This document shows, piece by piece, positions 310 through 63,151 of a stretch of 64,000 nt of DNA. A program made the position numbers and the translations under genes. A model generated the notes under the pieces. That model saw nothing but the letters and a program-made list of their open reading frames with translations. It was not told the origin of the DNA and searched no databases. Origin of the DNA: an uncultured Poribacteria bacterium (GTDB lineage: Bacteria > Poribacteria > WGA-4E > WGA-3G); NCBI GenBank assembly GCA_951813565.1, contig OX638351.1, forward strand, positions 5,088,001-5,152,000. The letters run 5' to 3'. Numbering within the stretch: position 1 is the first letter of the stretch; each line of letters starts with the position of its first letter.

Positions 310-677
310 CTATACTTTGGACAATTTTAGCTGTTTTCGTGAGGTTGGGTTAGAGAAAAACATATAGTTTTCATATTGGACACCTGTCGCCCCGCTGGGG
401 CTGAAGCGGGTTGTTTACCGCGTTTCTATACACCTGTCGCCCCGCTGGGGCTGCCCAAAAGGTATTTTTGGACGAGTTCTTTCAGCCAGCAAAATCGCAG
501 AAAATATAAATAATATAAGATGACACCTTAGCCCCAGCGGGGCGACAGGTATATAGAAGAAGGTAATTGCCGCTGTCTAAAGCCCCAGCGGGGCGACAGG
601 TGTCCAATATTTTGCTTTGGACACCTAACAGTTTCTCAGCAAGTCCTCGAACAATATGTAAATTGTCCAAACTATAG
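310..677. mobile_element. 368-bp MITE, family A copy 1
   Basis: 18-bp TIR CTATACTTTGGACAATTT / AAATTGTCCAAACTATAG; 9-bp TSD TATTAGATA; four internal CACCTGTCGCCCCGCTGGGGCT palindromes; inverted copy at 19498-19865. Confidence 0.9.
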
Positions 678-726
678 TATTAGATATTATGATGCGTTTT
701 TTATAGAATCACACTGTTCAATTTTC

Positions 727-801
727 GCACTGTTCCCGTTTCGACTCGGTAAGGTAGAGACCGCCTCAAGCGAGGCAGGTCGAATTCTCTACCAACAGTG
801 C
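727..801 (-). ncRNA. Candidate structured leader RNA or sRNA with pseudoknot
   Basis: Nested stems GCACUGUU/AACAGUGC, GGUAGAGA/UCUCUACC, CUGCCUC/GAGGCGG plus UUCGAC/GUCGAA; TTGCAA-17-TATCCT promoter-like element just upstream. Confidence 0.5.
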
Positions 802-1065
802 TAAGTATAGGATACGGGAAAAAGGCAGGATTTGCAAGTAAAATCTCTTAATGTCGTCTTTGATACGAAAAACGCCATTAAAATATAACAATAAAAATAC
901 TATGCAATAAATAATTTATGTCATAAACTATTTATTGCGTTTAGTTTTAAGAATTCTTAGTTTATGTATATTACTTAGAGTTATAGTGTAGGTAGGTAAG
1001 GTTTACGCGAACCCATAGGCATTAATTTAAGGATTATCTGAGAATGAGATATGCTCTTTAGTCCC

Positions 1066-1099
1066 GCCAAATGCCAAAAGCGCATTTGACGTTGATTTG
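1066..1099 (+). repeat. 34-bp hairpin-TTGATT micro-element inside a GTCCC^GTAGGGAC palindrome (representative copy)
   Basis: Empty palindrome CAGTCCCGTAGGGACGATATG at ~7792; the same site is filled again at 32732-32765. Confidence 0.75.
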
Positions 1100-1529
1100 G
1101 TAGGGACGGAATGTTTATAATAACAACAACTATGACAAACATATCGTTCCTACGGAACTCAAGACGTGTTGTTCATTTTTCTATAAACATATCGTCCCCG
1201 CCGAATACCATACGGGGTATGCCATAAGGCATTCATACCCGGGGAACGCCTACAAGCGCCGAATGCCAACAGCGCATTCGGCGTTGATTCTGTTCATACC
1301 GTTGATTTCTTGATTTGGCAAATGCTGCGTTGATTTGGATTTCTTTGTAGGAGTGACCTCCTAGTCGCGACCACATCAAAATATTGAGAAAAACGTGAAA
1401 ACTGAATGTTCTGCCGCTTATATTAAGCAAGTTGCATAACTCGCAAACTTGTGCTATCATACTTTCACATAAATTAAGATTGTAGGAGCATTGCGGTGTT
1501 CACCGACGTGTGGAAACCGTAGAGAAAAA

Positions 1530-2069
1530 ATGCAATTAGAAACTGCAACATTTGGGGCGGGATGTTTTTGGTGTGTTGAAGCAGTTTTTCAGCAGTTAGA
1601 AGGCGTTCATAAGGTTGTTTCAGGCTATACAGGCGGCACAACTGTAAACCCAAACTATCGCGCTGTCTGTATGGGTATGACGGGACATGCAGAAGTCGCG
1701 CAAATAGAGTTTGACCCTGAAGTGATTTCTTACAAAAAACTGTTGGAAGTTTTCTGGCAGACACACGATCCAACGACATTAAATCGCCAAGGAAATGATA
1801 CAGGCACACAGTATCGTTCTGCCATTTTCTACCATTCCGAGACACAGCAGCGCATCGCCGAAGAATCTAAAGCGGAAATGGATAAATCTGGGATGTGGGA
1901 CAACCCAATTGTCACAGAAATCACGCAGCTTGATGTCTTTTATCCTGCTGAAGACTATCACCAAAACTATTTCCAGTTGAATCCGAGACAACCGTACTGT
2001 CAGTTTGTGATTCATCCGAAGATGAAAAAGTTTACAAAGGATTTCAAGGATAAACTCAAATCCAGCTAA
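1530..2069 (+). CDS. msrA: Peptide-methionine (S)-S-oxide reductase
   Basis: GAGCFWC active site, GHAEV, QGNDxGTQYRS, FYPAEDYHQNY motifs. Confidence 0.97.
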   Translation: MQLETATFGAGCFWCVEAVFQQLEGVHKVVSGYTGGTTVNPNYRAVCMGMTGHAEVAQIEFDPEVISYKKLLEVFWQTHDPTTLNRQGNDTGTQYRSAIFYHSETQQRIAEESKAEMDKSGMWDNPIVTEITQLDVFYPAEDYHQNYFQLNPRQPYCQFVIHPKMKKFTKDFKDKLKSS

Positions 2070-2124
2070 GGTTTTCATAATAAAGACCGTGAGAATGCGT
2101 TCTTTATTATGAAAACCTTTATTT
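2068..2124 (+). terminator. Long hairpin after msrA, likely intrinsic terminator
   Basis: 19-bp perfect inverted repeat AAGGTTTTCATAATAAAGA / TCTTTATTATGAAAACCTT followed by a T-rich tract. Confidence 0.55.
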
Positions 2125-2479
2125 ATACTGAACTTTAGAATTAACAGGACATTTTGAGTTGTCCGAGGGAACTCCGGGGAATGCCAAAAGGCATTCATAC
2201 CGTTGATTTGGATTCCCGACTATCAGTGAGTTTCGTCGCGATTCGGAGATCGCTCTTACAGAAATGTGCCTCTTTAATTTCAAAGTTCACCATAAGAATC
2301 TCAAGCACAAATAATAGCAGCCCCAACGGGGCGGAATGTTTATAGATACATCGTGAAAAAACTCTTTAGCCCCAGCGGGGCGAAATGTGTATCAATAAGC
2401 CAACATTGATGTCAAAAGATGTTCTATTAACCCAGAAGATTAGTCAAAAACCAAAATATTGTCCAAAGTCTTGTATTTT

Positions 2480-2635
2480 TAACCCAAGTTGCTACCTATA
2501 TCGCGAATGCTCTTGTAGGAGGGGTTTCTAACCCCGATTTAGAAAAGAAAGCATAAGAATTAGCTGGAAATCCTTGTTTTTCAGTAAAAAGCAATGTCTG
2601 CAAGCTTGAAATCTTGTCCGTAGCAACTTAGGTTA
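2480..2635. mobile_element. MITE family B copy
   Basis: TIR TAACCCAAGTTGCTAC / GTAGCAACTTAGGTTA; internal GTAGGAGGGGTTTCTAACCCCGA REP; related copies at ~7427-7640 and 40134-40290. Confidence 0.8.
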
Positions 2636-2653
2636 TTTTTAGGAGGTAGAATA

Positions 2654-4264
2654 TTGAAACCTTATTCTATAGTCATACTATGTATCACGCTCTTTATATG
2701 TTATTTTAGTGGAAGTAGTAATGTGATATCCCAAGAGGCAGAACAACCAACAGAGGCAGCGCAACCAACACCTGTCCAAGTTGAAACGCCACGCCGTGTT
2801 ACAATTGTCTCAGAAAAGAGTTACAACGGTTTTTTACAACCGCGTGCAGAAGTGAAGGTGTTTGCTAATATTGCTGGTAAAATCATTGCACTCAATGCGG
2901 AAGTTGGACAGAAGGTAGCAAAAGGGGATATGCTCGCCCAGATCAGTGCGCGTGAGGCAGGCATCGCAGCAATAAAGACTGAAGTAACATTAAGCGTTGC
3001 CAAATCGCAACTCACAACGACAGAAGCAAACGCGCAGGCGCGTGTTGAAACGCAACTTGTGACAGCGAAAGAAGCCGTTGCAGAGGCGGAAGCGAAACTT
3101 GAGGAGACAAAATCACTCGCTGAGATCCGGATTCGTAATAAGTTATTACAAGCGGAATCTGCCCTTAAAGTTGCCGAGTCGAACTTGGAGCGCGCGAAAG
3201 TCAGTTCGGAGCAGGGACTGGAACGGGCAAAAACAGAATTTGCCAAAACGACATCGGACTATGAAAGAAATAAAGAACTTCACGAAAAAGAACTTATCAG
3301 TGACAGCGATTTTGAATCATCAGAAACGCGTTACAAACTGGGTAAAAGCCGATATGAAGAGGCTGTCGCATCAGCAAATCAGTTTAAAGATGGTTCAGCG
3401 CAACTGGCAGTGGAAAAAGCAAAAGCAGAATTAGTTGTAGCCCAGAAAATAGTCGAGAGCAAAGGATGGGAACGTGAAATTGCTGCAGCTGAAGCTAAAG
3501 TTACGCAAGCGAAAGCCAATTTGGTTACTGCTCAAAAACTCGTTGACGCAAAAGCATGGGAACGCGAAATTGCAATCGCGAAATCTGCTGTCAGTGAAGC
3601 AGAAGAACAACTAAAACTGGCGCGGGAACAGGTGAATCAAGCAGCTATTATTTCCCCAATTGACGGTGTGATTGCGCAGCGTCATCAAGAACTTGGGGAT
3701 TACGCCAAAACTGCCGCTTCTTCTGGTACACCAGTGTATACGGTTGTTGCTGTAGATGTTCTCAAAGCCGTTTGGACAGTGCCTGTGAGCGATATAAACC
3801 GAATTAAGAATGGAAATATGGTGCTTATCTCTGCAGCATCCGGTATTCAGAACATTATTGGAACAATTGATTTTATCAGTCCAACTGTAAAACAGGGAGA
3901 GAATACGGTTGTTGTTCACGCAACACTACGTAATTCAGCAGGCATGAACGCTGAAAACAGTTCTCCAACGCCAATTGACAATAGCGCATTAAAACCGGGC
4001 ACATCGGTTACTATCTCTATCAAAACAGGTGAACGGAAAAATGTCTTGTTGCTACCGCGTCGTGCTGTTGTGCAGATTCAGAATGGAAAAGGGAACATTT
4101 TTGTCGTTGAGGGAGATGTGGTGCGTCTTAAACAAGTAAATGTAGGCGGTGTATACGGTAACGAAATAGAAATTAACTCGCGTCTCGCGCTGGCAACGCA
4201 AGTGATTATTGACAATCAGCACCTGCTTAAGGATGGTATGGCAGTTTCAGTTGTGAAGGATTGA
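2654..4264 (+). CDS. Efflux RND transporter periplasmic adaptor (membrane fusion protein)
   Basis: Signal peptide; lipoyl-like halves (GKIIALNAEVGQKVAKGD; IISPIDGVI); long coiled coil; LLPRRAV beta-barrel; AGGAGG RBS. Confidence 0.85.
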   Translation: MKPYSIVILCITLFICYFSGSSNVISQEAEQPTEAAQPTPVQVETPRRVTIVSEKSYNGFLQPRAEVKVFANIAGKIIALNAEVGQKVAKGDMLAQISAREAGIAAIKTEVTLSVAKSQLTTTEANAQARVETQLVTAKEAVAEAEAKLEETKSLAEIRIRNKLLQAESALKVAESNLERAKVSSEQGLERAKTEFAKTTSDYERNKELHEKELISDSDFESSETRYKLGKSRYEEAVASANQFKDGSAQLAVEKAKAELVVAQKIVESKGWEREIAAAEAKVTQAKANLVTAQKLVDAKAWEREIAIAKSAVSEAEEQLKLAREQVNQAAIISPIDGVIAQRHQELGDYAKTAASSGTPVYTVVAVDVLKAVWTVPVSDINRIKNGNMVLISAASGIQNIIGTIDFISPTVKQGENTVVVHATLRNSAGMNAENSSPTPIDNSALKPGTSVTISIKTGERKNVLLLPRRAVVQIQNGKGNIFVVEGDVVRLKQVNVGGVYGNEIEINSRLALATQVIIDNQHLLKDGMAVSVVKD

Positions 4265-4277
4265 GGTATGATTCTGT

Positions 4278-5411
4278 CTATTTCTTACTGAGAACATAAA
4301 CCTGAATGTGTTCCCACTTCCGTTTAGACCGATGCGTTGCAACGCGTCTTTTAAAAAGGTCTTTGCAGACAAAACCTGACTCATCTATTATCGCTTCAAG
4401 GTTAGCGATTGCTTTTGGGCCGGACGCATCCGCATAGCCTAATATTAGCAGTCCATCAGGTTTCAGGAAGTCCGCCACCTGTTCAAAAAACCGTCTCAAT
4501 GTTTGTTGTTTTTCGTCGTGGATTGCTAACTCCGCTCTGTTTCGCACACGCGCAACAACCCACGGTGCGTTGAAAATGATAATGTCAAATTGGACTGATG
4601 GAAACGGATCAAACAGGTCTCCAGGCGGCATAACCTGCACATTGTCTGAATTTGATAACACCTGCTGAATGTTCAATTTCGTTGTTGCTACTGCTTCAGG
4701 GAGAATGTCAGACGCATATATCTTCGCTTTTTCCCCTAATTCCTGCTGTGCAAGTAGTGTCAAACACCCACTTCCACAACCGACATCTGCAACTATGGGA
4801 TTGCTGGGTAAGTTTTCATTGTACACACTTTGTAGTGCTTCTTGAAAGCATTCAATTGTTTCTTGGGAACGCGGGGCAAGGACATTTTCAGACGCAACAA
4901 GGGACGCTTCTAAGGCGTGGATAGCATAAGTCCCTTCAAGTGCGTTCTGAATACGTTGAATAGTAACGACAGGCACAAGAAACGGACAGTCTTCGTTAGC
5001 ATCGGGCGGTTCACCAATCAACTCCAATAAATAAGGTCCAACAGGAACGGGTTCAACCTGTAAATTTCCTTCCTGATTTGCCCAACACATCAGTTTAGAC
5101 AGTGCTGCTTCTCGATCCTGTTTCGGATTGTTACGTTGATGACGTGATTTTCCTCTCTTAGCTCGGTCAGTATTTGGCGCGGATAATTCCTTTTTATGTC
5201 GCTGGATGTAGTCCATTACGGCAATAATTTGTTCCCATCCCCCTTCAACAATTGCAACACCACCGCGCTGAATATGTGTGAAAATACGTCCAAGATTTTT
5301 TAACTCTTGATGCGCAAACAGCCTTACACTTCCACGTGCAAAGACAGCATCGCGACATTCAGTAGGAACGTAGAGTTCCCCGATAGGACTAACGGAATAG
5401 AATTTGTTCAT
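4278..5411 (-). CDS. Class I SAM-dependent methyltransferase (MTS/HemK-like)
   Basis: VADVGCGSG motif I; FNAPW motif IV. Confidence 0.85.
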   Translation of the reverse strand: MNKFYSVSPIGELYVPTECRDAVFARGSVRLFAHQELKNLGRIFTHIQRGGVAIVEGGWEQIIAVMDYIQRHKKELSAPNTDRAKRGKSRHQRNNPKQDREAALSKLMCWANQEGNLQVEPVPVGPYLLELIGEPPDANEDCPFLVPVVTIQRIQNALEGTYAIHALEASLVASENVLAPRSQETIECFQEALQSVYNENLPSNPIVADVGCGSGCLTLLAQQELGEKAKIYASDILPEAVATTKLNIQQVLSNSDNVQVMPPGDLFDPFPSVQFDIIIFNAPWVVARVRNRAELAIHDEKQQTLRRFFEQVADFLKPDGLLILGYADASGPKAIANLEAIIDESGFVCKDLFKRRVATHRSKRKWEHIQVYVLSKK

Positions 5412-5425
5412 TTGGTGCTGTGGTA

Positions 5426-6475
5426 TTAGCGAATTGCCACAATCTCCCCAGTCTTTACCGATTCCGCTTCCTTATAGCAGAGCAGGAGTGCATCTCTCGC
5501 ACCGACACCAGACAACGCTGTGGGTTCTTCCTCCCAATCAATGGCATCAACAGCGTATTGAATCTCAGCAGTGAATGCATCAATTGGGTCCACTTCCCCT
5601 AAATCTACCTGTTCAACGTTGCCATCCTCTGTAATGAGTGTCAATGGCACTGCCGTAGAAGGTTCGCCGGCAAGCGTAGAAAAATCAAACAATAGTGTGG
5701 CTTTTTCAAGAAAGAGCTCAAATCCGTGTGAAAAAGCTCTACCTTTTTGTGAAATTGCGCCTGATGAACAACTCACCGTGAGTTCCTTATCGTTGTAGAT
5801 ATATTGTGTTGTCAAAAAGTCCAAGAAATTACCGCCTGCCAATTTGCCTTGTGAAAACACTGCATCGGGAACACCACACAGCAGTTGAATAAAATGTGTG
5901 TCGTGGATATGTAAATCGATACCAGGACCGCCGCTCTTTTCAATGTCAGCAATGTCCCGCGACCAACTCGGTTTAGAGATAATCCGCTTAAAATGCGCGC
6001 CGAGAAGTTCGCCATATTCTCCACTTTCAACAAGTTTTTTGGCATAAGCATATTCAGCAAAGAAAGGCAGCACGTGTGCAACCATAAATTCCTTGTCTGT
6101 TTGTTCTGCGAGTTCAACGATTTCATTTGCATCGTCAATGTCAATAGAGATCGGTTTTTCAACAAGGGTATGTTTTCCTGCCTGAAGGGATGCAATGCTA
6201 ACGGATTTATGAAGATGTGTGGGTAAACATATATCAACAAGGTCAATCTCTTCATCGGCAAGTAGTGCGTCAATATCGCTATATTTTCGGATGTTAGAGA
6301 GGTCTTCCATACTGCCGCGGGGACCGAAATTACCTTGAATCCCTGTCCAATCACCATCAAGCTTTTTCGGATCACGCGTACAGATGGCGACTACTTCTGC
6401 GCCTGTCCCGCGTTGAATGCCGTAGTAGTGAATCATCCCCATAAATCCGATGCCGACAATTCCGATTTTTATCAT
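5426..6475 (-). CDS. Gfo/Idh/MocA family oxidoreductase
   Basis: GIGFMG Rossmann motif, EKP motif, DLHIHD. Confidence 0.92.
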   Translation of the reverse strand: MIKIGIVGIGFMGMIHYYGIQRGTGAEVVAICTRDPKKLDGDWTGIQGNFGPRGSMEDLSNIRKYSDIDALLADEEIDLVDICLPTHLHKSVSIASLQAGKHTLVEKPISIDIDDANEIVELAEQTDKEFMVAHVLPFFAEYAYAKKLVESGEYGELLGAHFKRIISKPSWSRDIADIEKSGGPGIDLHIHDTHFIQLLCGVPDAVFSQGKLAGGNFLDFLTTQYIYNDKELTVSCSSGAISQKGRAFSHGFELFLEKATLLFDFSTLAGEPSTAVPLTLITEDGNVEQVDLGEVDPIDAFTAEIQYAVDAIDWEEEPTALSGVGARDALLLCYKEAESVKTGEIVAIR

Positions 6476-6563
6476 TTTTCTATCCTTATTTTACAGAAGA
6501 AGGCACAGATGCTTGACTTTTCAAGAACACCTGTGCCGAAAAAAATTTAATGAAAACCACCGA

Positions 6564-7352
6564 TTAATAGGCAATATTTCTTTGCTTAATATTGCCCCAT
6601 GTAGTCGCGGCTTTGTTTTTCGGTGTAACAGCAAGGAGACTACCGCCCATTGCCTCGTTGATTTCGTCTTCGCTGAGTGCGCGACTCCAAATCGCAGCAT
6701 CGTCAATTATACCGTTTTCGAACGTGTACTGAGGCCGGTCTTTGGAGCAACCAATCCGTAAGTCTTGGTCATTAGTGCCAGTAAATTTAATTGCTTGCGC
6801 ATCTTCAAGTGCCAGATCGCCATCAACGTAGACTTTCATAGCGCTACCGTCATAGGTTCCAACGACGTAGTGCCATGTTTTCTCCTTCAGTGAATGTGGT
6901 TGGTCTAATCTGGGACGGGCGTTACCTGTTCCCAAAAACATGTTGATATTCTTACCGTCACCGAAAGCGCCTATACCGTAAGAGGTATGCTCACCTCCGT
7001 TATGGCAATTTTTATCGAACCATTGTGAATCGTTATTCCACGCTTCCTGATATATCCAGGCTGCCATGGTAATTTCACCGCTAATTTTCAATTTTTCGTC
7101 AGCGGGGACATTCACACAATCCGCGCCTTCAGCAGTGATTTTGATCGCATCGCCGTTTTTGCCTTTGACAATTTCAGTGTTTGCTACGATGTTTGCATCA
7201 AGTCCGTTGCCGGAACTGTCAAGAATCGTTTTACCTTCAACATCGTCAAAAGTGAAGTAGACGACGAGATCATCTTCAAGTGCTGCCATGAGTGTGCTAA
7301 CTGTGATTAACATGAGTATGGTTAAGAGAGAAAACATTATTGAACGGACCAT
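6564..7352 (-). CDS. Secreted LamG-like jellyroll protein
   Basis: Signal peptide; VYFTFD, WHYVVGTYDG, GIIDDAAIWSRALS; C-terminal AVTPKNKAATTWGNIK. Confidence 0.88.
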   Translation of the reverse strand: MVRSIMFSLLTILMLITVSTLMAALEDDLVVYFTFDDVEGKTILDSSGNGLDANIVANTEIVKGKNGDAIKITAEGADCVNVPADEKLKISGEITMAAWIYQEAWNNDSQWFDKNCHNGGEHTSYGIGAFGDGKNINMFLGTGNARPRLDQPHSLKEKTWHYVVGTYDGSAMKVYVDGDLALEDAQAIKFTGTNDQDLRIGCSKDRPQYTFENGIIDDAAIWSRALSEDEINEAMGGSLLAVTPKNKAATTWGNIKQRNIAY

Positions 7353-7426
7353 CAGAGTATTCCTCCTATGTAAGGTTACAATGGAACTTTATACTTTCCC
7401 ACTGCTGCAGCGGGAAGATACTCGTA

Positions 7427-7640
7427 AAACTCAAGTTGCTACCTATTTACAAACGCTCTTGTCCGAGGGATTTGTAATCCCGCCAAATCATGCGGAATGC
7501 CAAAAGTGCATTCCACCAAGCGCATTTGACGTTGATTTGGATTTATAACAGATGACACCAGAATCAACGAAAAACCCTCGTTTTTTCAGTAAAAAACAGT
7601 ATTTTGCCACTCGGAATCTTGTCTGTAGCAACTTGAGTTA
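7427..7640. mobile_element. MITE family B copy with nested micro-element
   Basis: TIR AACTCAAGTTGCTAC / GTAGCAACTTGAGTT; internal REP interrupted by a hairpin-TTGATTTG unit. Confidence 0.7.
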
Positions 7641-7684
7641 GTATATCAAAAGAGTATCTAAATTGCAACTCTTTTATGTGATTA

Positions 7685-7960
7685 GTGTGTGTAAAGTTTT
7701 TGGCAAAATAAACCCACTGTTATTGTGGGTATGTGTTTCTGTTCCCACTTAGGTGTTGTCTTATGCACTTTATTATTTGAAATATGCCATTCAGTCCCGT
7801 AGGGACGATATGTTTATAGAAAACGTTAACACCACCTTAATTGAGTTCCGTAGGAACGATATGTGCATAATTAACTCGGACGATAAAATACAACATATCG
7901 TCCCTACGGGACTAAAGAGAACAAAAGTTTGTGCCTCTGTGCCAAAAACTTTACACACCC
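7685..7960. mobile_element. 276-bp MITE family C
   Basis: TIR GTGTGTAAAGTTTTTGGCA / TGCCAAAAACTTTACACAC; 8-bp TSD TGTGATTA; internal GTCCCGTAGGGAC palindromes. Confidence 0.8.
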
Positions 7961-8189
7961 TGTGATTATATCAGAAGTATGTTCTGTTATAGTCAATTAT
8001 AAAATTAACGAGTTGTGCTAAATAACTTTTTGTAACATATTATTTCACATAAGCAGAACGTTTGTCCGTGTTTGCTACTGGTTGATATGCTCTTCAGTCC
8101 CGCCAAATGCCACAGGCGCATTTGGCGTTGATTCAGGCATTCATAGCGTTGATTTATGGAGTTTCGCTCCGCTCTACCCAACCTAGGGA

Positions 8190-11100
8190 CTAATCAACTG
8201 ATGCATCGCCAATTTTCAAATCTTCAAAAGGTTTTCCATCAGCATCAGTAATTCGTAGATAGAATCCCCAGCTTAGTTCCTTATTGCAGACCTTGACAAG
8301 TATGGTGTTTTTACCAGCCTTGAGCGTTACTGGAATAACGTTATCATCAATGACTGCCCATCCACCATTTGGTTTTGCAAACACTTCTTTACCATTCAAC
8401 CAAATTTTACCTTCATCATCACTACCAAATCGGAATTGCACCTCACGTTCATCAGGGGATATCACGTTTGCCCATGCGTAGGAAACACGCCAATTAATGT
8501 CCTTCCCTAAATCAACGAAACCATCGAAAGCGTCATCCGTAAATGTTTGCCAACTTATCTGCCCATCTGCGCCTTCATATTTGGCAGTTGGGTCAAATTG
8601 CGTAGTATCTTCGGAGATGTATTTGGTATTATATCCGATTTCTGCAGTATTGTCAAATGGTCCGAGAACAAGCCACGCATTTTCATGAACTATGCCGGTT
8701 TGCAGCATCTGTTCCATTGCCTTATCGGGCATGTTGTTTTTACTATAGTACTCAGCCAAGCCGAGGTTGACATTTAGGTGGAATGATGGTTTAGGCGGGG
8801 GCGCGTTTAGTAACTCTTCCGCCGTTTTAAATTTCAGATCGGTAAAAGGAGTCCCATCTTCGTCAGTAAGCCGCAAATAAAAACCCCAAGATTGCGTTGA
8901 ATTGCAAATCTTCATAAGGATAGTATTTTCTCCTTGCTTCAAGGTGACAGGAATCGTATAACGGTCAAATGATATTCCGCTGGTTCTATCATGCTTAAAC
9001 ACATGTTGACCGTTTAGCCAAATTGTTCCCTGGTCATCGCTATCAAATCGGAATGTAATGTCGCGTTTATCTGGAGAGATAACAATTGCCCATACATAGG
9101 CTGCCTGCCCATCCTTATCGCTGCCGAAATTGTAATGTCCATCCAATAATACATATTCAGATTCTTTCCAACTGATGAGTCCATCTTTTCCATAGTATTT
9201 TGCTGTTGTGTCAATTTGTGAAGTTTCTTCAGGGATATACGCATTTCTATGGCCTATTGAATCTACATTTTTAAACGGTCCAAGGGTTATCCAACGAGTT
9301 TCAGGCACAAAACCTGTTTTTGAAAAAAGGTAGCTTTCCACGTTCTCAGGCGTATCATTTTCACTGTAGAATTGCGCTAACGTACGGTAAGCGTGTGCAC
9401 GATTACTTGAACTTTCTGGTGGAATAGTTTTTATCAACCCATCCAGCATTTGGGCATAACGTTCTTTATCGTTTGCTTTCTTTCTTAAATCAGCGACTTT
9501 CTTCCAAAACTGCTCCGAGGAATAATCGGAAGTAATGATACTTAAAGCGTATTTGTAATTTCTTAACGCATCATCATAGCGTTCATTTGCAATACACGCA
9601 TGCCCAAGTGTCATGGGATAGTAATAACTCGTTCCCGTATAGCCTTGTAATGCACGTTTCGCGAATTTTAGCGCAATGTCCGGATAGAGACCTTTTTCAA
9701 GGAGTTCTTCAGCAAACCTACGTTGGTAATATGCACTCTGTTTGTTGACCGCTTTCTCTCGAATCTTCAACCACTTCGCGTATGCAAGTTCAGCTTTTTC
9801 CGATTCATCTGTTTTCTTGTAGAGATCGCCTAATAGTTCGTGCAGTTCAGCACTTCCTTCTCCTTTCGGAATCAGCTCTTCAAGGATAGCGATGCGTTTG
9901 TTTTCTTGCCCTTCATCAGTGTAAAGGTCGGCGATAGCGCGAATTGCTGAATTGTGGTTGCCTTGTGTCAGCGGTGCGTCTAATGCGCGACGATATACTG
10001 CTTGAGCTTCTGATGTCAGGTTCTGTTTTACAAATAATTTTGCTAACAGATCGTAGGACTGGTATGATTTTGGTTGAAGTTCAATCGCTTTTTCGTAAGA
10101 GGATGTCGCCTTTATCAAGTGCTCAGTCTTCAAACTTCCAAAAATTGGACGGGTGTAAGATTCAAGTTTAGCATTTCCAATGAGTTTCCCATCATTTTTA
10201 TGAGGTGAACTATCGGAAACGCGACCATCCGTTTCTGCGTCAAATTTCCAATAGCCGACTAATCCTGTTTCATCTCCATTCAACTGCTTGTTCATATCGG
10301 AACGAATTTGTTTTTCAGTACGCGCGATGTTCCAAATTCGCACTTCATCAATGAGCCCAGCAAAAGATGCGTGCTCAGATATTTCTTCTTCATGTGAACA
10401 ACCGATACGAAATGGCAGTGTGGTTTTACGTAGACTGTTCGCCTGTTTAAAGTCATTTCTTCCAACTTCAAAACCGTTGAGATATAACTTCATGATGTCA
10501 TTTTTAGCATCAATGGTTCCCGCAACATGGTACCATTTATTTTTTTCAATCGTATTTGGCGGAGACCAAATAAATTTTTGTGGATGTCCGCCCGGGGATG
10601 CATTAAAGAGAATTTTACCTTCATCAAACAACCAAAGTGTGAATTGACGATGCGAAATGTCCGGAATCCGTTTGTCACCTTTGAATAACACAGTCGTATA
10701 GGTGTTTAGAAAATCTGTGGGTTTGATCCATGCTGATACTGTCACTTGTTCCGTAATCTCATTCAAAGACTCGCTGCCGTTGATTTCGACGTAACTTCCG
10801 TTGCCATCTAAGCTAAGTGCTGTGTCTCCAACACTCTCAAAGACTGGACGGGTATAAGGTGAAAGCGTGGCATTTCCTATGAGTTTGCCATCATTTTTGT
10901 TAGGTGAACTATCAGAAACGCGTCCCTCCGTTTCTGTGTCAAATTTCCAATAGCCGACTAATCCCTGTTCATCCCCATTGAGTTGCTTGTTCATATCAGC
11001 GCGAATTTGTTGCTCAGTACGTGCAACGTTCCACACACATACTTCATCAATTTGCCCGACAAAAGCTGTATGTGCAGACACCTCTTCATGAGTCCATCCA

Positions 11101-14100
11101 ATACGAAGTGCGAGATTGCTTTGATATATTCTCTGTTCGCCCTTAAAATCTCTCTGATTAACCTGAATTCCATCAATAAAAAGTTTGATGATGTCGTTCT
11201 TTGTATCCACAACACCCGCAATGTGATGCCAAGTGTTGGGTTCAATAATACCTTTTGAAGAATAAATAGATGCGTCACTTTCGCCATCGGGCGATGCAGC
11301 AAATTGAATCGACCGATCATCTTTAAGATTTAGGAAAAAACTTCGTTTCTTGAAATTGGAATCCCACTCATCAGTTTTAGAAATAAAAGGTGAATATCCG
11401 TTTGGGAATTTTGTCGGTTTAATCCACGCTGATACTGTCACCTGATCCGTAATGTTGTTTAATGACTCGCTGTCACCGATTTCAACGAAACTCCCATTGC
11501 CGCCAAGCGTAAGCGCAGTGCCTTCAACCACTTCACCTGTCTTCCGTCTCTCAGACGCAGGCGGCAGATTTTGATAAAGGTCACCAAGTTTTTTGTGCCA
11601 CTGCGTTTTTTTGGGTTGCAGTGTGGAAAGTTTTACATATTGCCCAATCGCTTCTTTAGTTTTATTGGTGGCTTCATAACTTTCGGCAAGTTTCAAGATT
11701 AGCTTGGAATCGTTGGGGTTCTCCTCAACCTTCTTAAGCTGTTCCGGTATCCATTTTTCGTAAAGTTTTCCATCTTTAGCGATTTCACGGATTGCATTTT
11801 TTGCCTTATTTTGTGTGCTGTCAGATGTGGCTCTGCTTGCCATCTCCTGATATGCATCAATAGCTTCTTCGTAGCGCTTTGCCTCACGGTAGCTTTTCGC
11901 AAGCATTTCGCGCAAAGTATCTTGAATCGAACTACCGCTGTAACTGCTACTTGCATCAATCGCGGATTTAGTCAGTTCAATCGCTGGTTCGTACATTTTA
12001 TTCTCAATGCAGAAAGTTGCGACCGTGCCAAGAAACCACATATCAGTTCTTTTACTACTGGATGCAAGTGCCTTCTCAGCTCGTTTGAGCGTCTCTTTCA
12101 CCAATTCAGGTTGTTTGTTTTTTTCCAAAGCAGCCGCGGCATAATATAAATTGCGCAAATCATCAGATTTTGCTTTGCCAAGTGCTTTATACATTTCAGC
12201 AGCTTTTTGATAGTCCTTTGCATCCCAATATATTTTTGCCATCACTCTGAGTGCAACAGAATTTTCTTTATTTTCTTCAAGTTTACCCTCATAATGCGTC
12301 TTCAAATCATCAAGTTTAATTTGATCATTGAAAGCACTAATCAAAGTATCACGTGCGGTATCTACATCGTATCTCGCTGTAATACCTAACGAACTGTACG
12401 ACGAACTGTACCTGAGTGTTCTACTGTTTGTATTTGTATTCGCCTGTGTTTCATAGGTTTCTATTACTGAGTCCATTTCACCGAGTTCCACGTATACTTT
12501 GAGCAATTCAGCAGAAATTCTTTCTTTCTCATAAGAGCTGGTTGTCATGTCGCGTGCTCTCTTATAAGCATCAACAGATTTTTCTAATTCGCCGGCATTC
12601 AGAAAGTGTTCGGCACGGACTTTTTGCATCTCAAAAGTAAGTGTGCCTTCATCTTCAGCCTTTTGTAGCATCTCTTCTAAATTTCCCTGATAACGATAAA
12701 GGTTAATCAATTTCCGTTCGATATTTCGCCGATCATAATCTGATACCGTGTACTGAATGGCATCCCTGAATGCCTTTTCTGTCGCAGCTACGTCGTCATT
12801 AGAGAAGTAAAGTGCTGCCATATCGAGATGAATTTGTCTATCTCCAGGCGCTAATTCAATTGCTTTTTGATATGTGGTAAGAGCCTCATCCGGTTTATTT
12901 TCGTCGGCATAGAGTTTTGCAAGTCGTACGTAATGGACACCAATTTCCGGTTCAGCTTCAATGTATTTCTGTGCAAGTTCAAGTGCATCGTTGGGTTTAT
13001 CAGCATCTTGATAACTTTTGACAAGTCCATCCTGATACTTTGTATTCTCTGGGTCAGCTTCAAGCAGTTCAGTCCACGTCTGGGCAGCTTTTTCGTGTTG
13101 ATCCATGCTTGTATAGAGCTTTGCCAGTTGCGCTCGGGATTTAAAGTCTTCGGGTACCGTTTCAACGATTCGTTCATAAATTTCTATGGCTTTATCTTCT
13201 TCGTCACGCTGCACGAATTCTTCTGCCATCGCGCGCTGCATACCGATACTCATCTCTTGCGTTTTTTCGGCAAGTTCTTCTGTGGCATCAAGATCGCCGC
13301 GTTGCTGTTTTATCCGCATGAACCTATCTTGTGCATACTCACGGTTATACGATGATGCAGAAAGATCGTTGATAATTTCGGTAAAGATAGCCTCGGCATC
13401 ATCCCACATTTGGTGTTGCATGTATTTTGAGCCGAGTTGTCTTTTTTCATACACGCTTCTTGAACTATCTTGCATAGTTTGGATCGTGCCCATTTTACGG
13501 AATGCATTTTGCGCTTTTTCCAATTCATCTATCTTGGCATAAGCCTCTCCCAGTTTCTTGTAACATTCTTCGAGTTCCCATGAATTTTGACTTTCAAGTT
13601 TCTCTGCGGCAGCTTCAAGGAGACGGAATTGAAGTTCGTTCCCTTCACATGCGTTAGCAAGATTATAAAGCCACTGGGTGCTAACAGACGTGAGTGCATT
13701 CTCAATCAGATGATTGACGTGCAAACTTGCGCCTTCAATATCATCCGCCTTAAGTTTCATGGATGCCACAAGATATAGGAGTTTAGCGTCTGAAGGACTT
13801 TCGGCAAGTTTCGCTTCATATTCTGCAATAAAACTTTCTAATTCATCACTTTTCTCATCTTCTGATTCATCGTTTTTCTTATAGAGATTAGCGAGTCTTA
13901 ATACATAAGATACTTGGATGTCAGATATATCGTCAGTTTTGGATTGTTCGCGCAAGTATTGGATTGCCTTCTCACGTCCACCTGCTTTTTCATGAAATTC
14001 CGCAAGTTTCAATACAAACTGCGTTTGGGAAAGTGAGGTCTTACCAAGTTTTTGCTTTTCGGTTAAGTACTGAATCGCTTTTTCAGGGTCACCAGCAGCA

Positions 14101-17100
14101 ACATAAGCTGAGGCTAATTCCCGGTGGATATAGTCCCAGCTCGGGTGAACTTGAAGAATTTTTTCGAATATATCAACAGCATCTTGCGGTCTATCTTCGG
14201 TCAGACAACGTTGCGCAACTTCTTGGGTGAAATCGTTGCCGGCGTATTGTCCAACAGGCAGAATTATCTCTTTCGTGAGAGCAATAAGTTCATCCATTTT
14301 TCCTGCTTCAACAAATGCGTCTATGGCATTGCGATAATTGTATCCGAGAGCAGTTGAGTTATTTTTTAGAAGTATGGAATATTCAGGGACAGCATCCACT
14401 GCTTTCCCATTTCGCTCCAACATCTGGATGTGTCGGAGGCGGGTTGCACTGTCCTTCGGTTGTAATTTCAACGCTGCTTTGAACGCCTCTGAGGCTTTGT
14501 CAATCTTATTAGTGCCCTCATAGAACATTGCGAGTCTGATTTGCGCTTGGAATGACTCAGGATTCTTTTCGACCTCAGCGATAAAGTGGTTTTCACGGTC
14601 CTGCATACTTTGTGAACGACCAACAATATTTGTAGCCTGTTGAAAATTCCATGCGTACATCGTCCGTCCATAGCGATCAGGTTGGTTAGCAAAACGTAAT
14701 GCACGCTCCGCGAGTAACGCTGCATCCTGCCCTCTGCCGAGTTGTCTAAGATGTTGACTTAAATTCATCAGAAAATTCGGGCTGCGCTGTGTCATTGCTA
14801 ATGCCATCGCTTTTTTCGCAGCAGCAATCGCGTATTGTGTGAAACCAGCATCTTGAAGACTTTGTGAGAAATCATAAAGCTCTTGCGCACCAGTTGGTGA
14901 ATTCAGAATTTTTGCGATCAAGTCACGTATAGTGACTGCATCGCCTGTATGAACGGCAAGCTGCAGTAAAAGATCATAATACTGGCGACGGTTTCTTGGT
15001 TCTCTCTCAGCAAGATCCTCAAGCATAACCAATGCCTCCCTAAATTCCCCAGTCTGAATAGAGACAAAAGCGGTGTTGAGTTTCAGTGTAAGGTCATCTG
15101 GAAATTCCTTTTGCAAGGTAGAGAGAACCTCTTGTGCCAGATCGCGTTTGCCATCCCACCAATAGCAATAACTGAGTGCCAAACTCGGATAGATACGGTC
15201 CCGCCCCTCTGCCGCGTCTAATTCTTTTTGGAATTTTTTATATAACACTTCCTGTTGATCCCGCATCCAAAACTCACGAAAAATTGATCGGAGATAATTC
15301 AAACGTTCCTGATTGAAGTATGCTGTTGGGGTGGGAAAAGTAGACTGAACTCGTCTATAACTTCCGTAATAATAGTTTGCCAGGGAAAGTGCAGCAACAC
15401 GTCTGGGATTCGATGCGTTAGGTTTTGTTCGTTCACAAAAAGTCCAAAAAAGCGCAACCGTTTTGTTGAGTTCACCTTGATCTATGTAAGTATCTGTGAG
15501 TCTTTCAAAAAGGCGCCTATACTGCCCATGCTGCTTTTGCGGCGGGATAGGGAGATTAATAAGGATTTTCTCTGCGATATCTATCTTTTTAGTCACATGG
15601 AAAGCATCAACTAACTCATAACCTGTGCTGAAGTCAGTGACTTTTATATCCTCAATTTCACTCAATAGTTTTTTGGCATCTTCTTTTTTATCGTCACGAT
15701 AAAGCTCTTTGGCGTATTCACCGATATATCGGAGTCTTGCTTCGGGAACCAACCCAGGCATATCAGCAAGTGATTCTTTTAACGTTTCGTAACTGAGGTC
15801 CTCTTGTATTAATCGTTGCAATCGTAGCGGTTGGTATGCCAAGTCGTTGGGTGAGATTTCAATCAACTTGTCAATAACATTTTTAGCCTTGTCGTTGTTC
15901 TGAATCAAGGTATAGAATTGTGCTAAGGTTTCAAGTGTCTTGATGTTTGTAGGATTTGTCTCGGCATCAGTTTCAAAATGTTTGACGAGTTCAGGCAGTT
16001 TTCCCTGCTGCTGCGCAATTGTTGTTAATTGCACGAGAGCGCCAGCTTGTGCCTCTTCAAAAATTTTCGGCATCCACGGCATACTGGCACCCGCAAAAGT
16101 CGGTTTACTCTGAATCCGTCCGATACTTCCACGAGAAATCTCGAATTTATTTATTTCAATTCCAGGAATGGAAGAAGAAGCGAAAATCGTAGGTCTTGCA
16201 TCCTTCTGTTTTGACATATTTTGAGGGGGTTCAGGCATGTCGAGAATCTTGTGAAAATACGTGGTCGCGCGTTCTGATTCATTCATTCCGACCAACATAA
16301 CGCCAAGCCGGTAAAGGGGGATGTGCGCGTCAGTGCCTGTAATTTTTTCAGCTGCCCGGTCAAGCACCAAAAATGCTTCATCTGACAGTCCATGGCGTAG
16401 CAATAAAGCAGCGAGTTTCACATCCGCTTCAAGCGTCTGATTTTTCGCGTGTAGCAGTTTCGTCCATGCTTGAATTGCTTCCTGTTCACGTCCTGCATCA
16501 AACAACAATTCACCGAATTTTTGTTGATGAAAGCTTTCGGGGTGTGCCTTGACGAGACGTTGTTGATATGTGAGCGCATCCTGATTATCACCAAGATCAA
16601 GGCTAATTTCTACAAGTTTTGATAATAAATCCGGATTTTTGCGATCCTTATCTAACGCCCTTGCCAATTGAAAGCGCGCGTTCGGTAGGTCGCCATCCAT
16701 TCGGTAAAGTTCTGAAAGTGCTAAAACCGGTGCTACATCAGACGTGCTGGATTTAGATAATTGCTTCAATTTTTCCTCAAACTCTCCACGTCTACCGAGG
16801 TCATAATATGCTTCGGAAAGAGGTCCAACAAAAGCAAGTTTTTCACTCACGGTCCTGCTCAAATCCCAACACCGCCAATACTGTGCGAGTGCTTGCTGAA
16901 GTTTGCCTGAAAGTTTATAAATAGCTGCTAATTCAGCGCGTGTATCAATCGCTTCTGGTCGTAAACGAATTGCCTGTTTTAGACTGTCTATAGCCGTATC
17001 GTAGTTTCTGGATTGTTTAGCGATTTGTGCAAGCAGTTGATGTCCTTCAGGATTGCGAGGACTGTTTGCAATCACCTGTTTTGCCGCGGTTGTTGCCGCG

Positions 17101-19115: not shown

Positions 19116-19497
19116 CAAAAAACCTCCATTGGGAATAGGGCAAGAGTGAACAGAAATCTTTTTATAATGAATATTTCTTAGCGTTTACGGCGTTTGTAGT
19201 CGCGCAATTCATTGCCAAATCAACGGTCCGAATGCCCTTTGGCATTCCCCGTCCGGCATGCTGCCAAATCAACGCCAAATGCGCTTTTTGGCATTTGGCG
19301 GGTGTAAACTTAAGCACATAATTACCAGATTTTCTCTTGTGGGAGGGGTTTTCAACCCCGATTTCTGATGCTATATTATATCGGGCGGACAAGGTCTCCC
19401 TCCCACAAGAGAAAATACAGCATTTTTTCTTAAGTTGACACTTATGGGTAGAGCGAAGCGAAACCCAACAATTCAACCGTCTTGGAAGTAATTTATA

Positions 19498-19865
19498 CTA
19501 TAGTTTGGACAATTTACATATTGTTCGAGGACTTGCTGAGAAACTGTTAGGTGTCCAAAGCAAAATATTGGACACCTGTCGCCCCGCTGGGGCTTTAGAC
19601 AGCGGCAATTACCTTCTTCTATATACCTGTCGCCCCGCTGGGGCTAAGGTGTCATCTTATATTATTTATATTTTCTGCGATTTTGCTGGCTGAAAGAACT
19701 CGTCCAAAAATACCTTTTGGGCAGCCCCAGCGGGGCGACAGGTGTATAGAAACGCGGTAAACAACCCGCTTCAGCCCCAGCGGGGCGACAGGTGTCCAAT
19801 ATGAAAACTATATGTTTTTCTCTAACCCAACCTCACGAAAACAGCTAAAATTGTCCAAAGTATAG
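19498..19865. mobile_element. 368-bp MITE, family A copy 2 (inverted)
   Basis: Reverse complement of 310-677; its own 9-bp TSD TAATTTATA. Confidence 0.9.
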
Positions 19866-19870
19866 TAATT

Positions 19871-19984
19871 TATAGTAAAATCCAATAATATGTTCACATT
19901 TCAATGAACAGCAATTCCCACACGCATGCGCTGGCGAGGTTTCCTAACCTCGCCAATGTAAAGGTAATTGTGAATTTTACTATA
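19871..19984. mobile_element. 114-bp MITE family D copy 1
   Basis: TIR TATAGTAAAAT; central TGGCGAGGTTTCCTAACCTCGCCA palindrome; inverted copy at 49125-49238. Confidence 0.8.
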
Positions 19985-20155
19985 AAGTTGAGTTTCACTC
20001 ATTTTCCTGTTATTTCGGCATCAAATGGAGAAAAAATCGCTCTTTTATGTCCGATTTTTTGTTTATTCCGTTCTACCCAACGGACAGTGGTTATTAAATT
20101 TTATTATCAAACTCACGTTAGGTTATAATATCATGGATTCGATGATAAAGTATAT

Positions 20156-20983
20156 TTAAGCAGAAGCAAGCACACTGTCCATCACCTCTTGCCATCTACC
20201 CTCAAACTTCTCACCAAACTCTTTTTTACCACCCGTTGCCAAAGGACCGGTAATCATCGGTTTAGTAGCGTTATTCCGTTCCCAGAGTTCCTTACCACCG
20301 AAATCGTTATGGAGAAAATGCAAGGCAACGCCAGCGCGTTCTTTATCTGTGAGATTCGATCTGGTGCAGTGCGCAACGCCATAACAAAAGAAAAGCACGC
20401 CGCCTGCCTTTAACTCAATCGGCACAGCGCGTTCTTCAGGTGGATCGCAACGAATATGGTGGTCGCTCAACGGGTCTTTATAGTGTTCATAGGATTCCCG
20501 ATGGCTACCCGGAATAACGTGAATACACCCGTTTTCCACGTTTGCATCGTGAATAGCGATCCACATCGCAGTGCCGCGCAACGGGTCAGCAATTTTGAAA
20601 TAGGCGTTATCCTGATGCCAACTTGTACCGATACCGACTTTCGGCGGTTTCCAAAACGCCTGATCCAGTTCCAACATAAATTCATCTCCGATGAGCTGTT
20701 TGACAGCAGAGACAACTTTCGGATGAAAAGGTAACGCTTTGTGCAAGTCGCTACGATTGTTTAGCGGAATAACCTGAAGGTTCTGGCGTTCACCTTCATT
20801 ATCGCGTTTAGTGCCGTCCTCTTGCACTGCGCAATTGATGCCGGTTCCTTTTTCGAGCTCGGTGTTGTATATCCGTTCCAATTCAAGTCGAAGTGCATCT
20901 GCTTCAACAGGGGAGAAAAAACCATCAATTGCCAAGAATCCATTTTCTCGAAATTGGGCGAGTTGTGTGTCTTTTAACTGCAT
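20156..20983 (-). CDS. Phytanoyl-CoA dioxygenase (PhyH) family protein
   Basis: WHQD (HxD), NGCIHVIPGSH, distal His and Arg. Confidence 0.92.
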   Translation of the reverse strand: MQLKDTQLAQFRENGFLAIDGFFSPVEADALRLELERIYNTELEKGTGINCAVQEDGTKRDNEGERQNLQVIPLNNRSDLHKALPFHPKVVSAVKQLIGDEFMLELDQAFWKPPKVGIGTSWHQDNAYFKIADPLRGTAMWIAIHDANVENGCIHVIPGSHRESYEHYKDPLSDHHIRCDPPEERAVPIELKAGGVLFFCYGVAHCTRSNLTDKERAGVALHFLHNDFGGKELWERNNATKPMITGPLATGGKKEFGEKFEGRWQEVMDSVLASA

Positions 20984-21077: not shown

Positions 21078-21423
21078 GAGGGGTGTGAATAAATAATTCC
21101 GATGTTAAATATGTGTTTAAAGGTAGTCCGCACACGCCGTGGGCTTCCGTCCACGAGTTCAAAGAGGCGCAGCATGTCGGACGGGGAATGCCATAAGGCA
21201 TTCGGACCCGGTGAATGACTAAAGACGAATGCGCTTGGTAGAATACGCTTTTGGTATTCTACATGATTCGCCATGATTCATACCGTTGATTTCTTGATTT
21301 GGCGCATGCTGCGTTGATTTGGCAATGAATTGCGCGACTACAAACAGCATTTCTATAAATCAAGCGGCACATGGCGTCTGTCCCTGTCTGTGTTGATCCG
21401 CCAAATATTTATGCACACTCCTC
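21078..21423. mobile_element. MITE family E copy 1 with nested micro-elements
   Basis: TIR GAGGGGTGTGAATAAATA / TATTTATGCACACTCCTC; near-perfect 8-bp TSD AACTAAAT/AAATAAAT; shorter copy at 62856-63151 and left end at ~46249. Confidence 0.8.
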
Positions 21424-23610: not shown

Positions 23611-23785
23611 TAATACCATTAAAAAAAAATAACGCCTCTTGAAAGAAATAGACCGTTGGTAGTCGCGCAATTCAACGCCAAATGCGACGAGTGCCATACG
23701 CGCGCTCGGCGTTGATTCTGCGTATGGCATTTGGCGCCTCGGACATTTCTTTTTAAAAGAGAAAATAATTCATAGAACTGGTATA
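23611..23785. mobile_element. MITE family F copy with nested micro-elements
   Basis: ATACCA...TGGTAT ends; the copy without the nested insert is at ~48016-48128. Confidence 0.65.
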
Positions 23786-28452: not shown

Positions 28453-29079
28453 CTTCTTGTAGGAGCGAGCTCCAGCTCGCGACCGCAGCACCAACCGTAA
28501 AAACGCGCATCTTCCACCCATAAAACCCCAAAAATCCAAACTCAAATTCCGCGCAATCCGCGTCCTCCGCGATTCAGACAAATAACGCGTTTCATCGCAA
28601 TTCATTGCCAAATCAACGCCAAGCGCGCTTGGGCGAATACGCGTATGGTATTCACCATGACTTGTCGCCTCGGACATTCTGTAGGAGGAACCTCTTGTGT
28701 GCCTTCTTCTTGTAGGAGCGAGCTCCAGCTCGCGACCGCAGCACCAACCGTAAAAACGCGCATCTTCCACCCATAAAACCCCAAAAATCCAAACTCAAAT
28801 TCCGCGCAATCCGCGTCCTCCGCGATTCAGACAAATAACGCGTTTCATCGCAATTCATTGCCAAATCAACGCCAAGCGCGCTTGGGCGAATACGCGTATG
28901 GTATTCACCATGACTTGTCGCCTCGGACATTCTGTAGGAGGAACCTCTTGTGTGCCTTCTTCTTGTAGGAGCGAGCTCCAGCTCGCGACCGCAGCACCAA
29001 CCGTAAAAACGCGCATCTTCCACCCATAAAACCCCAAAAATCCAAACTCAAATTCCGCGTCCTCCGCGATTCAGACAAA
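28453..29079 (+). repeat. ~2.5 tandem copies of a 253-bp unit
   Basis: CTTCTTGTAGGAGCGAGCTCCAGCTCGCGACC at ~28453, 28706 and 28959; identical spurious ORFs offset by 253 bp. Confidence 0.93.
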
Positions 29080-32638: not shown

Positions 32639-32844
32639 ACGAGTTGTGCTAAATAACCATTTGTAGAACTTTATTTCACAAAAGAAAATGTTCGTAAGTC
32701 ATTATCATATATTTATATGTTCTTCAGTCCCGACAAATGCCATAAGCGCATTTGGCGTTGATTTGGTAGGGACGATATGTTTATAGCATAAATGCAAATA
32801 TATGTGAAAACCAACAAAACAAAATGTTAACTGGCACAAGTCGT
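32639..32844. mobile_element. MITE family G copy
   Basis: Imperfect TIR ACGAGTTGTGCTAAATAAC / GTTAACTGGCACAAGTCGT; flanking TTAAATA duplication; relatives at ~8008 and 54523-54745. Confidence 0.7.
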
Positions 32845-40015: not shown

Positions 40016-40133
40016 TGTTTGCTTGTACGAAAAACGTATAGATCATAGGATATAGGAGGCGCAATGAATTGCGCGACTACAAAAGGTGCAAATCCTTAGA
40101 TGAAGATGTGTAGTTGTTTTAAATTTCACTATA

Positions 40134-45717: not shown

Positions 45718-45919
45718 AGAGGCGTTTTTAACATTAAACATACATCGAATGTGTGAAGTTTGTCAAAGTCTCACACCTCTTATTGTAGGGGCGGATTTCT
45801 GTGCTTGTCCGTTGTTCCGGACCTAAACGTGGCGAGGCACAGGAGCCCGCTGAATATCGGACGCGTATTCAGCGTTGATTCCGCCCTACAAGTTATTTAT
45901 GAGATAGGTTGAAATTAAA

Positions 45920-46201: not shown

Positions 46202-46505
46202 TTATGAACTTTACAATGCCATATTACAGAAAACAGTGACAAATAACTGAGGAGTGTGCATAAATAATTCCGATGTTAAATATGCGCTTAAAGGTAGTCC
46301 GCACATGCCGCTGAATGCGAAAAGCGCATTCACAGCGTTGATTGGGTTTCGCTTACGTTCTACCTACCTATGAACTCGATTTACAGTTTATACCAAATTA
46401 CCCTAAATCGTAGGGGCGGGTCTCTGTGCCCGCCCTTACCATCGGCAGTGAAAACAATACAATTCTCGTTAATTTGGTATTAGGTCCGAGTTAAAAATAT
46501 AGCAA

Positions 46506-62855: not shown

Positions 62856-63151
62856 GAGGGTGTGCATAAATAATTCCGATGTTAAATATGCGCTTAAAGG
62901 TAGTCCGCACACGCCGTGGGTTTCCGTCCACAAGTTCAAAGAGGCGCAGCATGCCACACGGGGAATGCCATAAGGCATTCGGACCCGGTGAATGACTAAA
63001 TGTCATTCATACCGTTGATTTCTTGATTTGGCGCATGCTGCGTTGATTTGGCAATGAATTGCGCGACTACAAACGCATTTCTATAAATCAAGCGGCACCT
63101 GGCGTCTGTCCCTGTCTGTGTTGATGCGCCAAATATTTATGCACACCCCTC
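62856..63151. mobile_element. MITE family E copy 2
   Basis: TIR GAGGGTGTGCATAAATA / TATTTATGCACACCCCTC; 8-bp TSD ATTTATAT. Confidence 0.85.

Follow-up and report, generated by a model that had tools for sequence, protein, structure and literature searches.

Hairpin-plus-tag units of 34-36 nt inserted without target duplication in the genomes of one Poribacteria family

Several described systems come close to the repeat unit reported here. The small dispersed repeats SDR1-8 of Nostoc, presented by Elhai et al. in 2008, are said to be very small (21-27 nt) and self-nesting, with compensatory changes in their stems and no enzyme of their own. The unit is likewise very small and enzyme-less and inserts precisely into palindromes and into its own copies, as the Nostoc SDRs are reported to do, but it differs from them in its length (34-36 nt, against 21-27 nt for SDRs), its phylum, its fixed 3' tag with a variable tail and the rule that it follows a C. 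According to the accessible part of one report, SDR5 inserts precisely into HIP1 (PMC4390886). The REP, BIME and REPIN repeats that go with RAYT proteins resemble the unit as short, extragenic, high-copy hairpins with a junction after C and no target duplication (accessible parts of PMC8266576, PMC3333891, PMC6006769, PMC3733652 and PMC3116915). Unlike REPs, the unit has no 5' GTRG/CGTC guide, and the hairpin foot reads AATCAAC on one strand and consists of variable target DNA on the other; the unit flanks no Y1 gene, stacks head-to-tail, invades REPs instead of being one, and carries its tag 3' on the strand favoured by wobble pairs.

Non-autonomous derivatives of IS200/IS605 elements share with the unit the absence of a target duplication and a hairpin with the end about 9 nt downstream, as in a right end, whereas the unit is a single hairpin with no left end, no tetranucleotide target (only the last C of the target word is constant) and an uneven junction on the tag side. 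It is neither a MITE, being asymmetric and devoid of terminal inverted repeats and target duplication, nor an attC site or integron cassette, since the best match to the integron integrase profile scores 33 bits against a cut-off of 265 and the boundaries lie off G^TT in all families except one. RPE-1 of Rickettsia is much longer than a 36-nt unit. Rickettsia RPE and intragenic REPs are in-frame palindromic inserts (PMC3733652, in the part available), and 36-nt copies of the unit add 12 residues, but the unit is rarely intragenic. The unit is a variant of the small dispersed repeat or REP-like kind; a literature search, whose reach excluded most subscription journals, returned no description of such a repeat in Poribacteria.

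The window, i.e. the whole 64,000-nt stretch of DNA that was analysed (G000:C1:5088001-5152000), belongs to a 5.43-Mb genome (G000) in one contig, the host of which is likely a sponge-symbiont member of the Poribacteria, two of the sequencing runs with this window being labelled as sponge metagenome. Read with its tag at the 3' side, the unit consists of a 5' G..C hairpin of 9-10 bp, a GTTGATT tag and a 2-nt tail; it is 34-36 nt long and non-coding, and its fixed part is the 7-nt tag. Type A stems have 9 bp plus a further C-G pair above a bulge, and type B stems have 2 bp, then a 1x3 loop, then 7 bp. The window holds 29 copies of the tag CGTTGATT, where 3.9 would be expected and none of 100 shuffles reaches 29, and reading of the sites assigned 20 of the 29 copies to units. 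All the sites named in the original prediction proved, on re-reading of the window, to lie at the coordinates given for them, including the empty and filled versions of GTCCC^GTAGGGAC (Table 1). For GAGGC^GCAATGAATTGCGCGACTAC, the empty copy at 40056 and the filled ones at 21169-21321, 62946-63050 and 28609-28666 stand, whereas the filling claimed at 19216 does not, its left flank being half of another unit.

Table 1. Units, nests and empty sites in the window.
Feature	Position in window	Strand	Details
Host palindrome GTCCC^GTAGGGAC split by a unit	1061..1107	+	Unfilled version at 7794
Type A unit, 34 nt	1066..1099	+	G..C hairpin, GTTGATT tag, TG tail; precise at C^G
Outer unit of four-level nest	1200..1337	+	Stem arms mismatched (chimeric)
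Level 2 of nest, type B	1214..1317	+	Collapses to 35 nt; lies in the outer unit's loop
Level 3 of nest, type B	1241..1309	+	TC tail; host G before TTGATT replaced by C
Level 4 of nest, type A	1258..1291	+	CT tail
Type B unit, 35 nt	2176..2210	+	Precise at CTCC^GATT; 66 empty copies of the 20-nt site
Type A unit inside MITE	7482..7539	+	Holds a flipped-hairpin unit (CAT + hairpin, 7489-7516)
Empty GTCCC^GTAGGGAC site	7794..7806	+	
Type A unit, then 3' half of a type B unit	8102..8156	+	Type A unit at 8102-8135, CA tail; chimeric flanks
Type A unit, half unit, type B unit	19216..19299	-	Type A at 19265-19299; type B at 19216-19250, ending in REP
Five-unit nest in GAGGC^GCAATG	21169..21321	+	Three tagged units, two flipped-hairpin units
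Type A unit	23686..23719	+	Enclosed by a unit on the opposite strand that has its tag fused to the REP
Type A unit with inner flipped-hairpin unit	28609..28666	-	In GAGGC^GCAATG; duplicated at 28862-28919
Type A unit	32732..32765	+	At GTCCC^GTAGGGAC
Empty GAGGC^GCAATGAATTGCGCGACTAC REP	40056..40080	+	Same REP family flanks a RAYT in G003 (L241)
Type A unit	45849..45882	+	CC tail
Type B unit, 36 nt	46310..46345	+	GG tail; chimeric flanks
Three-level nest in GAGGC^GCAATG	62946..63050	+	

A genome-wide count of copies found 891 arm-plus-tag units, in which the tag lies directly behind a hairpin arm, among the 1270 tags of G000, against 0-6 with each of 30 shuffled tags. Intact simple units number 560 (281 of type A with 34 nt, 116 of type A with 35, 123 of type B with 35, 36 of type B with 36, and 4 shorter) and include 183 distinct bodies; the same classifier takes 108 of 42928 random C positions. 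The units are distributed over both strands (420 vs 471, the GC skew being too weak to place replichores) at 4-40 per 100 kb, with no density peak along G000 that would mark an enzyme locus. Eight of the 891 lie within long ORFs and the rest are mostly extragenic. The Rfam search of the window gave no match at the gathering score and only sub-threshold ones, with a miRNA-like hairpin at 2051-2144, and the unit has no match in phage collections, plasmid collections or IMG/VR. The pattern is present in all 30 genomes of the genus, in 1 to 316 copies each (316 in G006), and in 56 of 73 genomes of one Poribacteria family, and in none of 47 genomes of three other families in the order; a scan of a genome collection returned at least 114 stretches, and 79 of the 80 matches listed were Candidatus Poribacteria. 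Other features of the window include a MITE-like repeat with CAAGTTGCTAC..GTAGCAACTTG ends at ~7425-7636, which has at least 10 copies, some of them carrying the unit, and an internal CGTTGATT of its own outside any unit; a gene for a 3642-aa TPR and laminin-G protein at 8190-19118 (-); and a TnpB gene at 31183-32364 (-).

The stem is conserved as a structure. A set of 34 distinct type A units, taken from the window and from other species with search patterns that placed no constraint on stem columns 2-5, has 95.9% of its cells paired and 34 cells changed on both sides, a value that none of 500 shuffles reached, and slid controls pair in 20-43%; the stems covary, with paired base changes of the kind noticed in the window. 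Genome-wide sets of units agree on the pairing, at a rate that is inflated because their collection tolerated at most two mismatches. On the strand with the tag at 3', G.T exceeds A.C in type A units (40 vs 17 in G000 and 20 vs 3 in relatives), which suggests that this is the folded strand; type B units have no such bias (9 vs 9).

Comparison with related genomes yielded precise filled/empty pairs between species. In a lipoyl-ligase-family gene, a 36-nt type B unit is inserted in frame at TTCC^GA (G000:C1:4511630-4511665, L204), adding 12 residues near the C-terminus; it is kept in three species (G000, G006 and G052) and the site is empty in 11 of 14, in an alignment of the best 13 relatives' loci out of 37 matching genomes. 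A 36-nt unit is present in the G000 copy of an ISAs1-like transposase gene and missing from a G006 copy, and a 34-nt, frameshifting unit lies in an IS982-like gene in L030, the G000 copy of which is empty; both pairs are copies of transposase genes and are thus homologous rather than strictly orthologous. The step entered in L030 is probably CCC^A, the empty G000 copy differing by one base beside the site, and the insert ends in a TG tail before A, i.e. without microhomology. One REP that is filled in G006 has an empty counterpart at the corresponding locus of G000, and, as originally noted for the units, none of these four pairs has a target duplication. Three further unique sites were compared with relatives, one of them being filled in 5 of 5 and the other two having ambiguous junctions, and 2 of 21 rows of a large orthologue comparison were clean, the others representing turnover of whole repeats or chance tags. 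For the unit at 32732..32765, the matching region of G006 (L017) holds a unit of the same sequence in the same host palindrome. Contigs from four runs break at repeats over positions 500-20400, and no unit with long unique sides is bridged among the 15 joints listed; strain-level polymorphism was not seen in these contigs, so that activity may be past. Within the gene for the TPR and laminin-G protein, the stretch at ~8.5-15 kb has little or no contig cover in three of the four runs and may vary between strains, contigs being evidence of presence rather than of absence.

We consider it very likely that the unit is mobile in its own right, now or formerly, and it is likely one of the smallest mobile DNAs. 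The micro-element is real, structure-selected and family-restricted: filled and empty orthologues between species and covarying stems bear out the idea of a very small, structure-defined mobile element, and the units, hosted by many REP families as well as by transposase genes and one housekeeping gene, are not constant components of a single larger repeat.

The junctions follow a one-sided rule. The base on the hairpin side is C in 430 of the 446 units that have no unit before them (CCC in 262), and the stem can be lengthened by pairing of this C with the tag's G. C^G, proposed at the outset as the insertion site, is indeed the commonest target step, but others occur, and the constant feature is the C on the hairpin side. 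The junction on the tag side is less strict, and the tail there tracks the next base (n=560; TG|G 335, CA|C 93, CG|C 30, TA|T 17, TC|T 15, CT|G 13 and CC|A 12). Among 240 flank contexts, drawn from 423 events in G000 after tandem members were dropped, 33 have a precise empty site, 29 a changed junction and 30 an ambiguous one, and 148 have no empty copy. Insertion is precise in the host families GTCCC^GTAG, GAGGC^GCAA, CCCC^GATT, CATAC^GCGC and ACCC^CTCC, and 1-2 target bases are replaced in three others, GCTCC-TA-CAGA (TA in 59/60 empty copies, C..CA in 5/5 filled ones), ACACC-TA-TGGG (TA in 75/81 empty copies, C..TA in 11 filled ones) and ATACC-G-TTGA (G in 154/157 empty copies, C..TC in 54 filled ones). 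Two families have their junction at CC|TA. The imprecise families could be few founders carried along by their hosts.

Units also nest several deep, as first noticed in the window, with four levels at 1200-1337, where the left and right flanks of the outer unit come from different repeat families. Iterative collapse of the G000 units removed 547, 62 and 9 in rounds one to three, missing chimeric outer units and those that hold members of a second family, in which the hairpin is flipped relative to a CATGATT tag. This family has 102 copies in G000 and inserts in the arms of main-family units, replacing 2-4 nt and joining at a shared ATT; an ATTGAT-tagged variant of it was seen in L238. Composite nests recur as blocks in G000, one of them in 33 identical copies, and of 91 tandem pairs, 20 consist of identical units, where 2.4 would be expected. 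The 91 units that directly precede another intact unit all end in TG, as expected if the recreated C^G step is entered or if circles recombine in the tag. Chimeric flanks are common and chimeric arms also occur; together with the composites that recur as blocks, the chimeric flanks indicate that passive spread certainly adds copies.

Which enzyme might move the unit was approached through gene searches. G000 has 10 Y1 matches, of which 5 are of the IS605 type, 3 exceed the cut-off for RAYTs and 2 are subclass-1.2-like, with a stop in one member of each of the latter two groups; in agreement with the original reading none lies in the window, the nearest RAYT being 17 kb upstream. RAYT genes of G000 are located at C1:242059-242472 and C1:5070821-5071234, and a subclass-1.2-like Y1 gene at C1:3098010-3098354. 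The host palindromes invaded by the unit are cognate flanks of RAYT/Y1 genes in G000 and relatives, and are thus true REPs of these genes; the family of the palindrome at 1061..1107, for instance, flanks a subclass-1.2-like Y1 gene in the relative G055 (L309). The search proposed at the outset, for a Y1 or RAYT gene flanked by the unit's own hairpin, was negative at all 31 loci read (10 in G000 and 21 in relatives, with L302 not parsed): at Y1 loci, the unit is present only as an insert in other REPs. Y1 proteins with subclass-1.2 motifs in L006, L007, L305 and L309 are flanked by hairpin-plus-3'-tail repeats, and the accessible part of PMC6006769 lists no flanking repeats of that sort for subclass 1.2.

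Other enzyme classes were also searched for. A Y2 search gave no match in 41 genomes, its positive control likewise being without match. With a completeness of 73-99% for these genomes and the possibility of enzyme loss, blanks in the enzyme searches weaken each route and exclude none. G000 has three copies of an IS607-like serine transposase; this and DDE transposases were rejected as movers, the unit having neither a shared core at both ends nor a duplication. The IS608-type guide rules gave no consistent fit on either strand of the unit. An origin from CRISPR repeats was rejected for G000, the repeats of its three arrays being unrelated to the unit; one array, of ~54 repeats, lies side by side with cas1 and a separate reverse transcriptase (RT) gene at G000:C1:3989138-3996451, and the two others are at 1198128 and 2830674. 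G015 and G016 have 12-17 RT matches each, mostly within ~3 kb of contig starts, perhaps reflecting host contamination of the bins.

We tentatively favour a model in which the 34-36-nt units, inserted without duplication, are moved as single strands by HUH nucleases of the Y1/RAYT type that they have borrowed from the invaded REP systems. The cut made by RAYTs is a single-strand nick after C (C|T, C|A, and C|C with a GTGG guide), for which the last G of GTRG serves as guide, and its 3'-OH can prime synthesis or attack a tyrosine-linked end (accessible parts of PMC8266576 and PMC3333891). By analogy, the nuclease would nick single-stranded target DNA after C, and the freed 3'-OH would be joined to the hairpin end of the unit or prime the copying of that end; a second transfer or a repair step would then seal the tag end, in some cases with donor flank carried along and 1-4 target bases lost. 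Every insertion would remake a C^G step, allowing units to stack, and much of the copy number would then come from passive spread with REPs and MITEs and from recombination between units. The constant C before the hairpin, the looser tag end and the crowding in REPs match one-ended transfer at RAYT nicks, and the presence of Y1 genes flanked by the host palindromes, with some Y1 in each of six high-copy genomes checked, lends further support. Against this, C|G, the commonest step, is not among the RAYT sites given in the accessible part of PMC8266576, the unit carries no GTRG guide on its 5' side, and no Y1 locus read has it as cognate flank. There is no preference for the tagged REP strand either (relative to the nearest GTRG tag, units lie on the same strand in 63 cases, on the opposite one in 118, with tags on both in 21 and none in 125), RAYT-profile matches are found in 19 of 24 genus genomes, but 11 of 16 genomes from unit-free families have them too, the six high-copy genomes share no one Y1 clade, and pure strand transfer leaves the replaced bases and the flipped-hairpin family unexplained.

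An alternative that we regard as unlikely is that a dedicated or host-encoded enzyme of the family, neither Y1 nor RT, reads the hairpin and tag and pastes the unit at CC steps in single-stranded or cruciform DNA. This would account for its restriction to one family, for the fact that no mobile enzyme tracks the unit, and for its entry into REPs of several Y1 clades and into ordinary genes alike. The searches nevertheless provided no candidate, IS110 being absent from G000, the integron integrase match lying below its cut-off and type IB topoisomerase being found in 0 of 41 genomes, and no conserved master locus emerged from 30 loci read in 22 low-copy genomes, including those with a single copy.

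It is about as unlikely that the unit is RNA-templated, with a short hairpin RNA and its 3' tail being copied into nicks by an RT or a repair polymerase, which would be primed at the tag end by 1-3 nt of microhomology. The match between the tail and the next base would fit this route, as would the joining of the flipped family at a shared ATT with loss of 2-4 nt, the wobble pairs favouring one strand and the sharp 5' G start. RT genes, however, were found in 10 of the 24 genus genomes searched and not in the other 14, including G006 with its 316 copies; G000 has two RTs, an apparently Abi-like one and one whose gene is flanked by cas1 and a CRISPR array; the orientation to flanking genes is near even in G000 (253 vs 211), and the L030 insert was joined with no microhomology.

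We judge improbable an origin from few accidental founders, created by template switching at hairpins and then amplified passively with REPs and MITEs, by gene conversion and by recombination in the tag, with no dedicated mobility. The 33-copy composite, the chimeric flanks and arms and the excess of identical tandem pairs all speak for passive amplification, but the occurrence of complete, precisely inserted units of one design in genes and at unique sites with no relation to each other does not, nor do the 183 distinct bodies with compensatory changes and the 240 flank contexts. Finally, classical IS200/IS605 peel-and-paste with TTGAT/TCAA as cleavage or guide words, at which the foot of the hairpin had originally been taken to hint, is highly improbable: the lack of target duplication, the subterminal hairpin and the multi-copy IS605 in the genome would suit it, but the unit is one hairpin rather than two ends, its junctions are not uniform and no consistent boundary falls at TTGAT/TCAA, the resident IS605-type elements (~25 related copies in G000, most without TnpA) mostly follow TTAG or TTAA and end in TGAC, and the Y1 matches of G006, with its 316 copies, appear by score and sequence to be subclass-1.2-like or RAYT, none reaching the IS605-type TnpA level of other genomes (L302 left out).

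Beyond the borrowing of RAYT-type nucleases, it is possible, if rather doubtful, that the unit represents a distinct minimal class of mobile DNA, in which the element amounts to no more than a hairpin and a 7-nt tag and is attached by one end after a C, through an undescribed enzyme or an RNA-templated route that one Poribacteria family has conserved; the same machinery might move the Nostoc SDRs and similar orphan micro-elements. In either case, the unit gives an idea of how small mobile DNA can be, and its hundreds of junctions, 56 genomes and clean empty sites bear on the open question of how tiny repeats spread without an enzyme of their own. Hijacking of RAYTs would mean that REP systems have parasites of their own and that short hairpins can be written into genomes at RAYT nicks; the involvement of a different enzyme would amount to a new, scar-free way of inserting ~35 nt. 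Within these genomes, the units add in-frame peptides to enzymes and break transposases.
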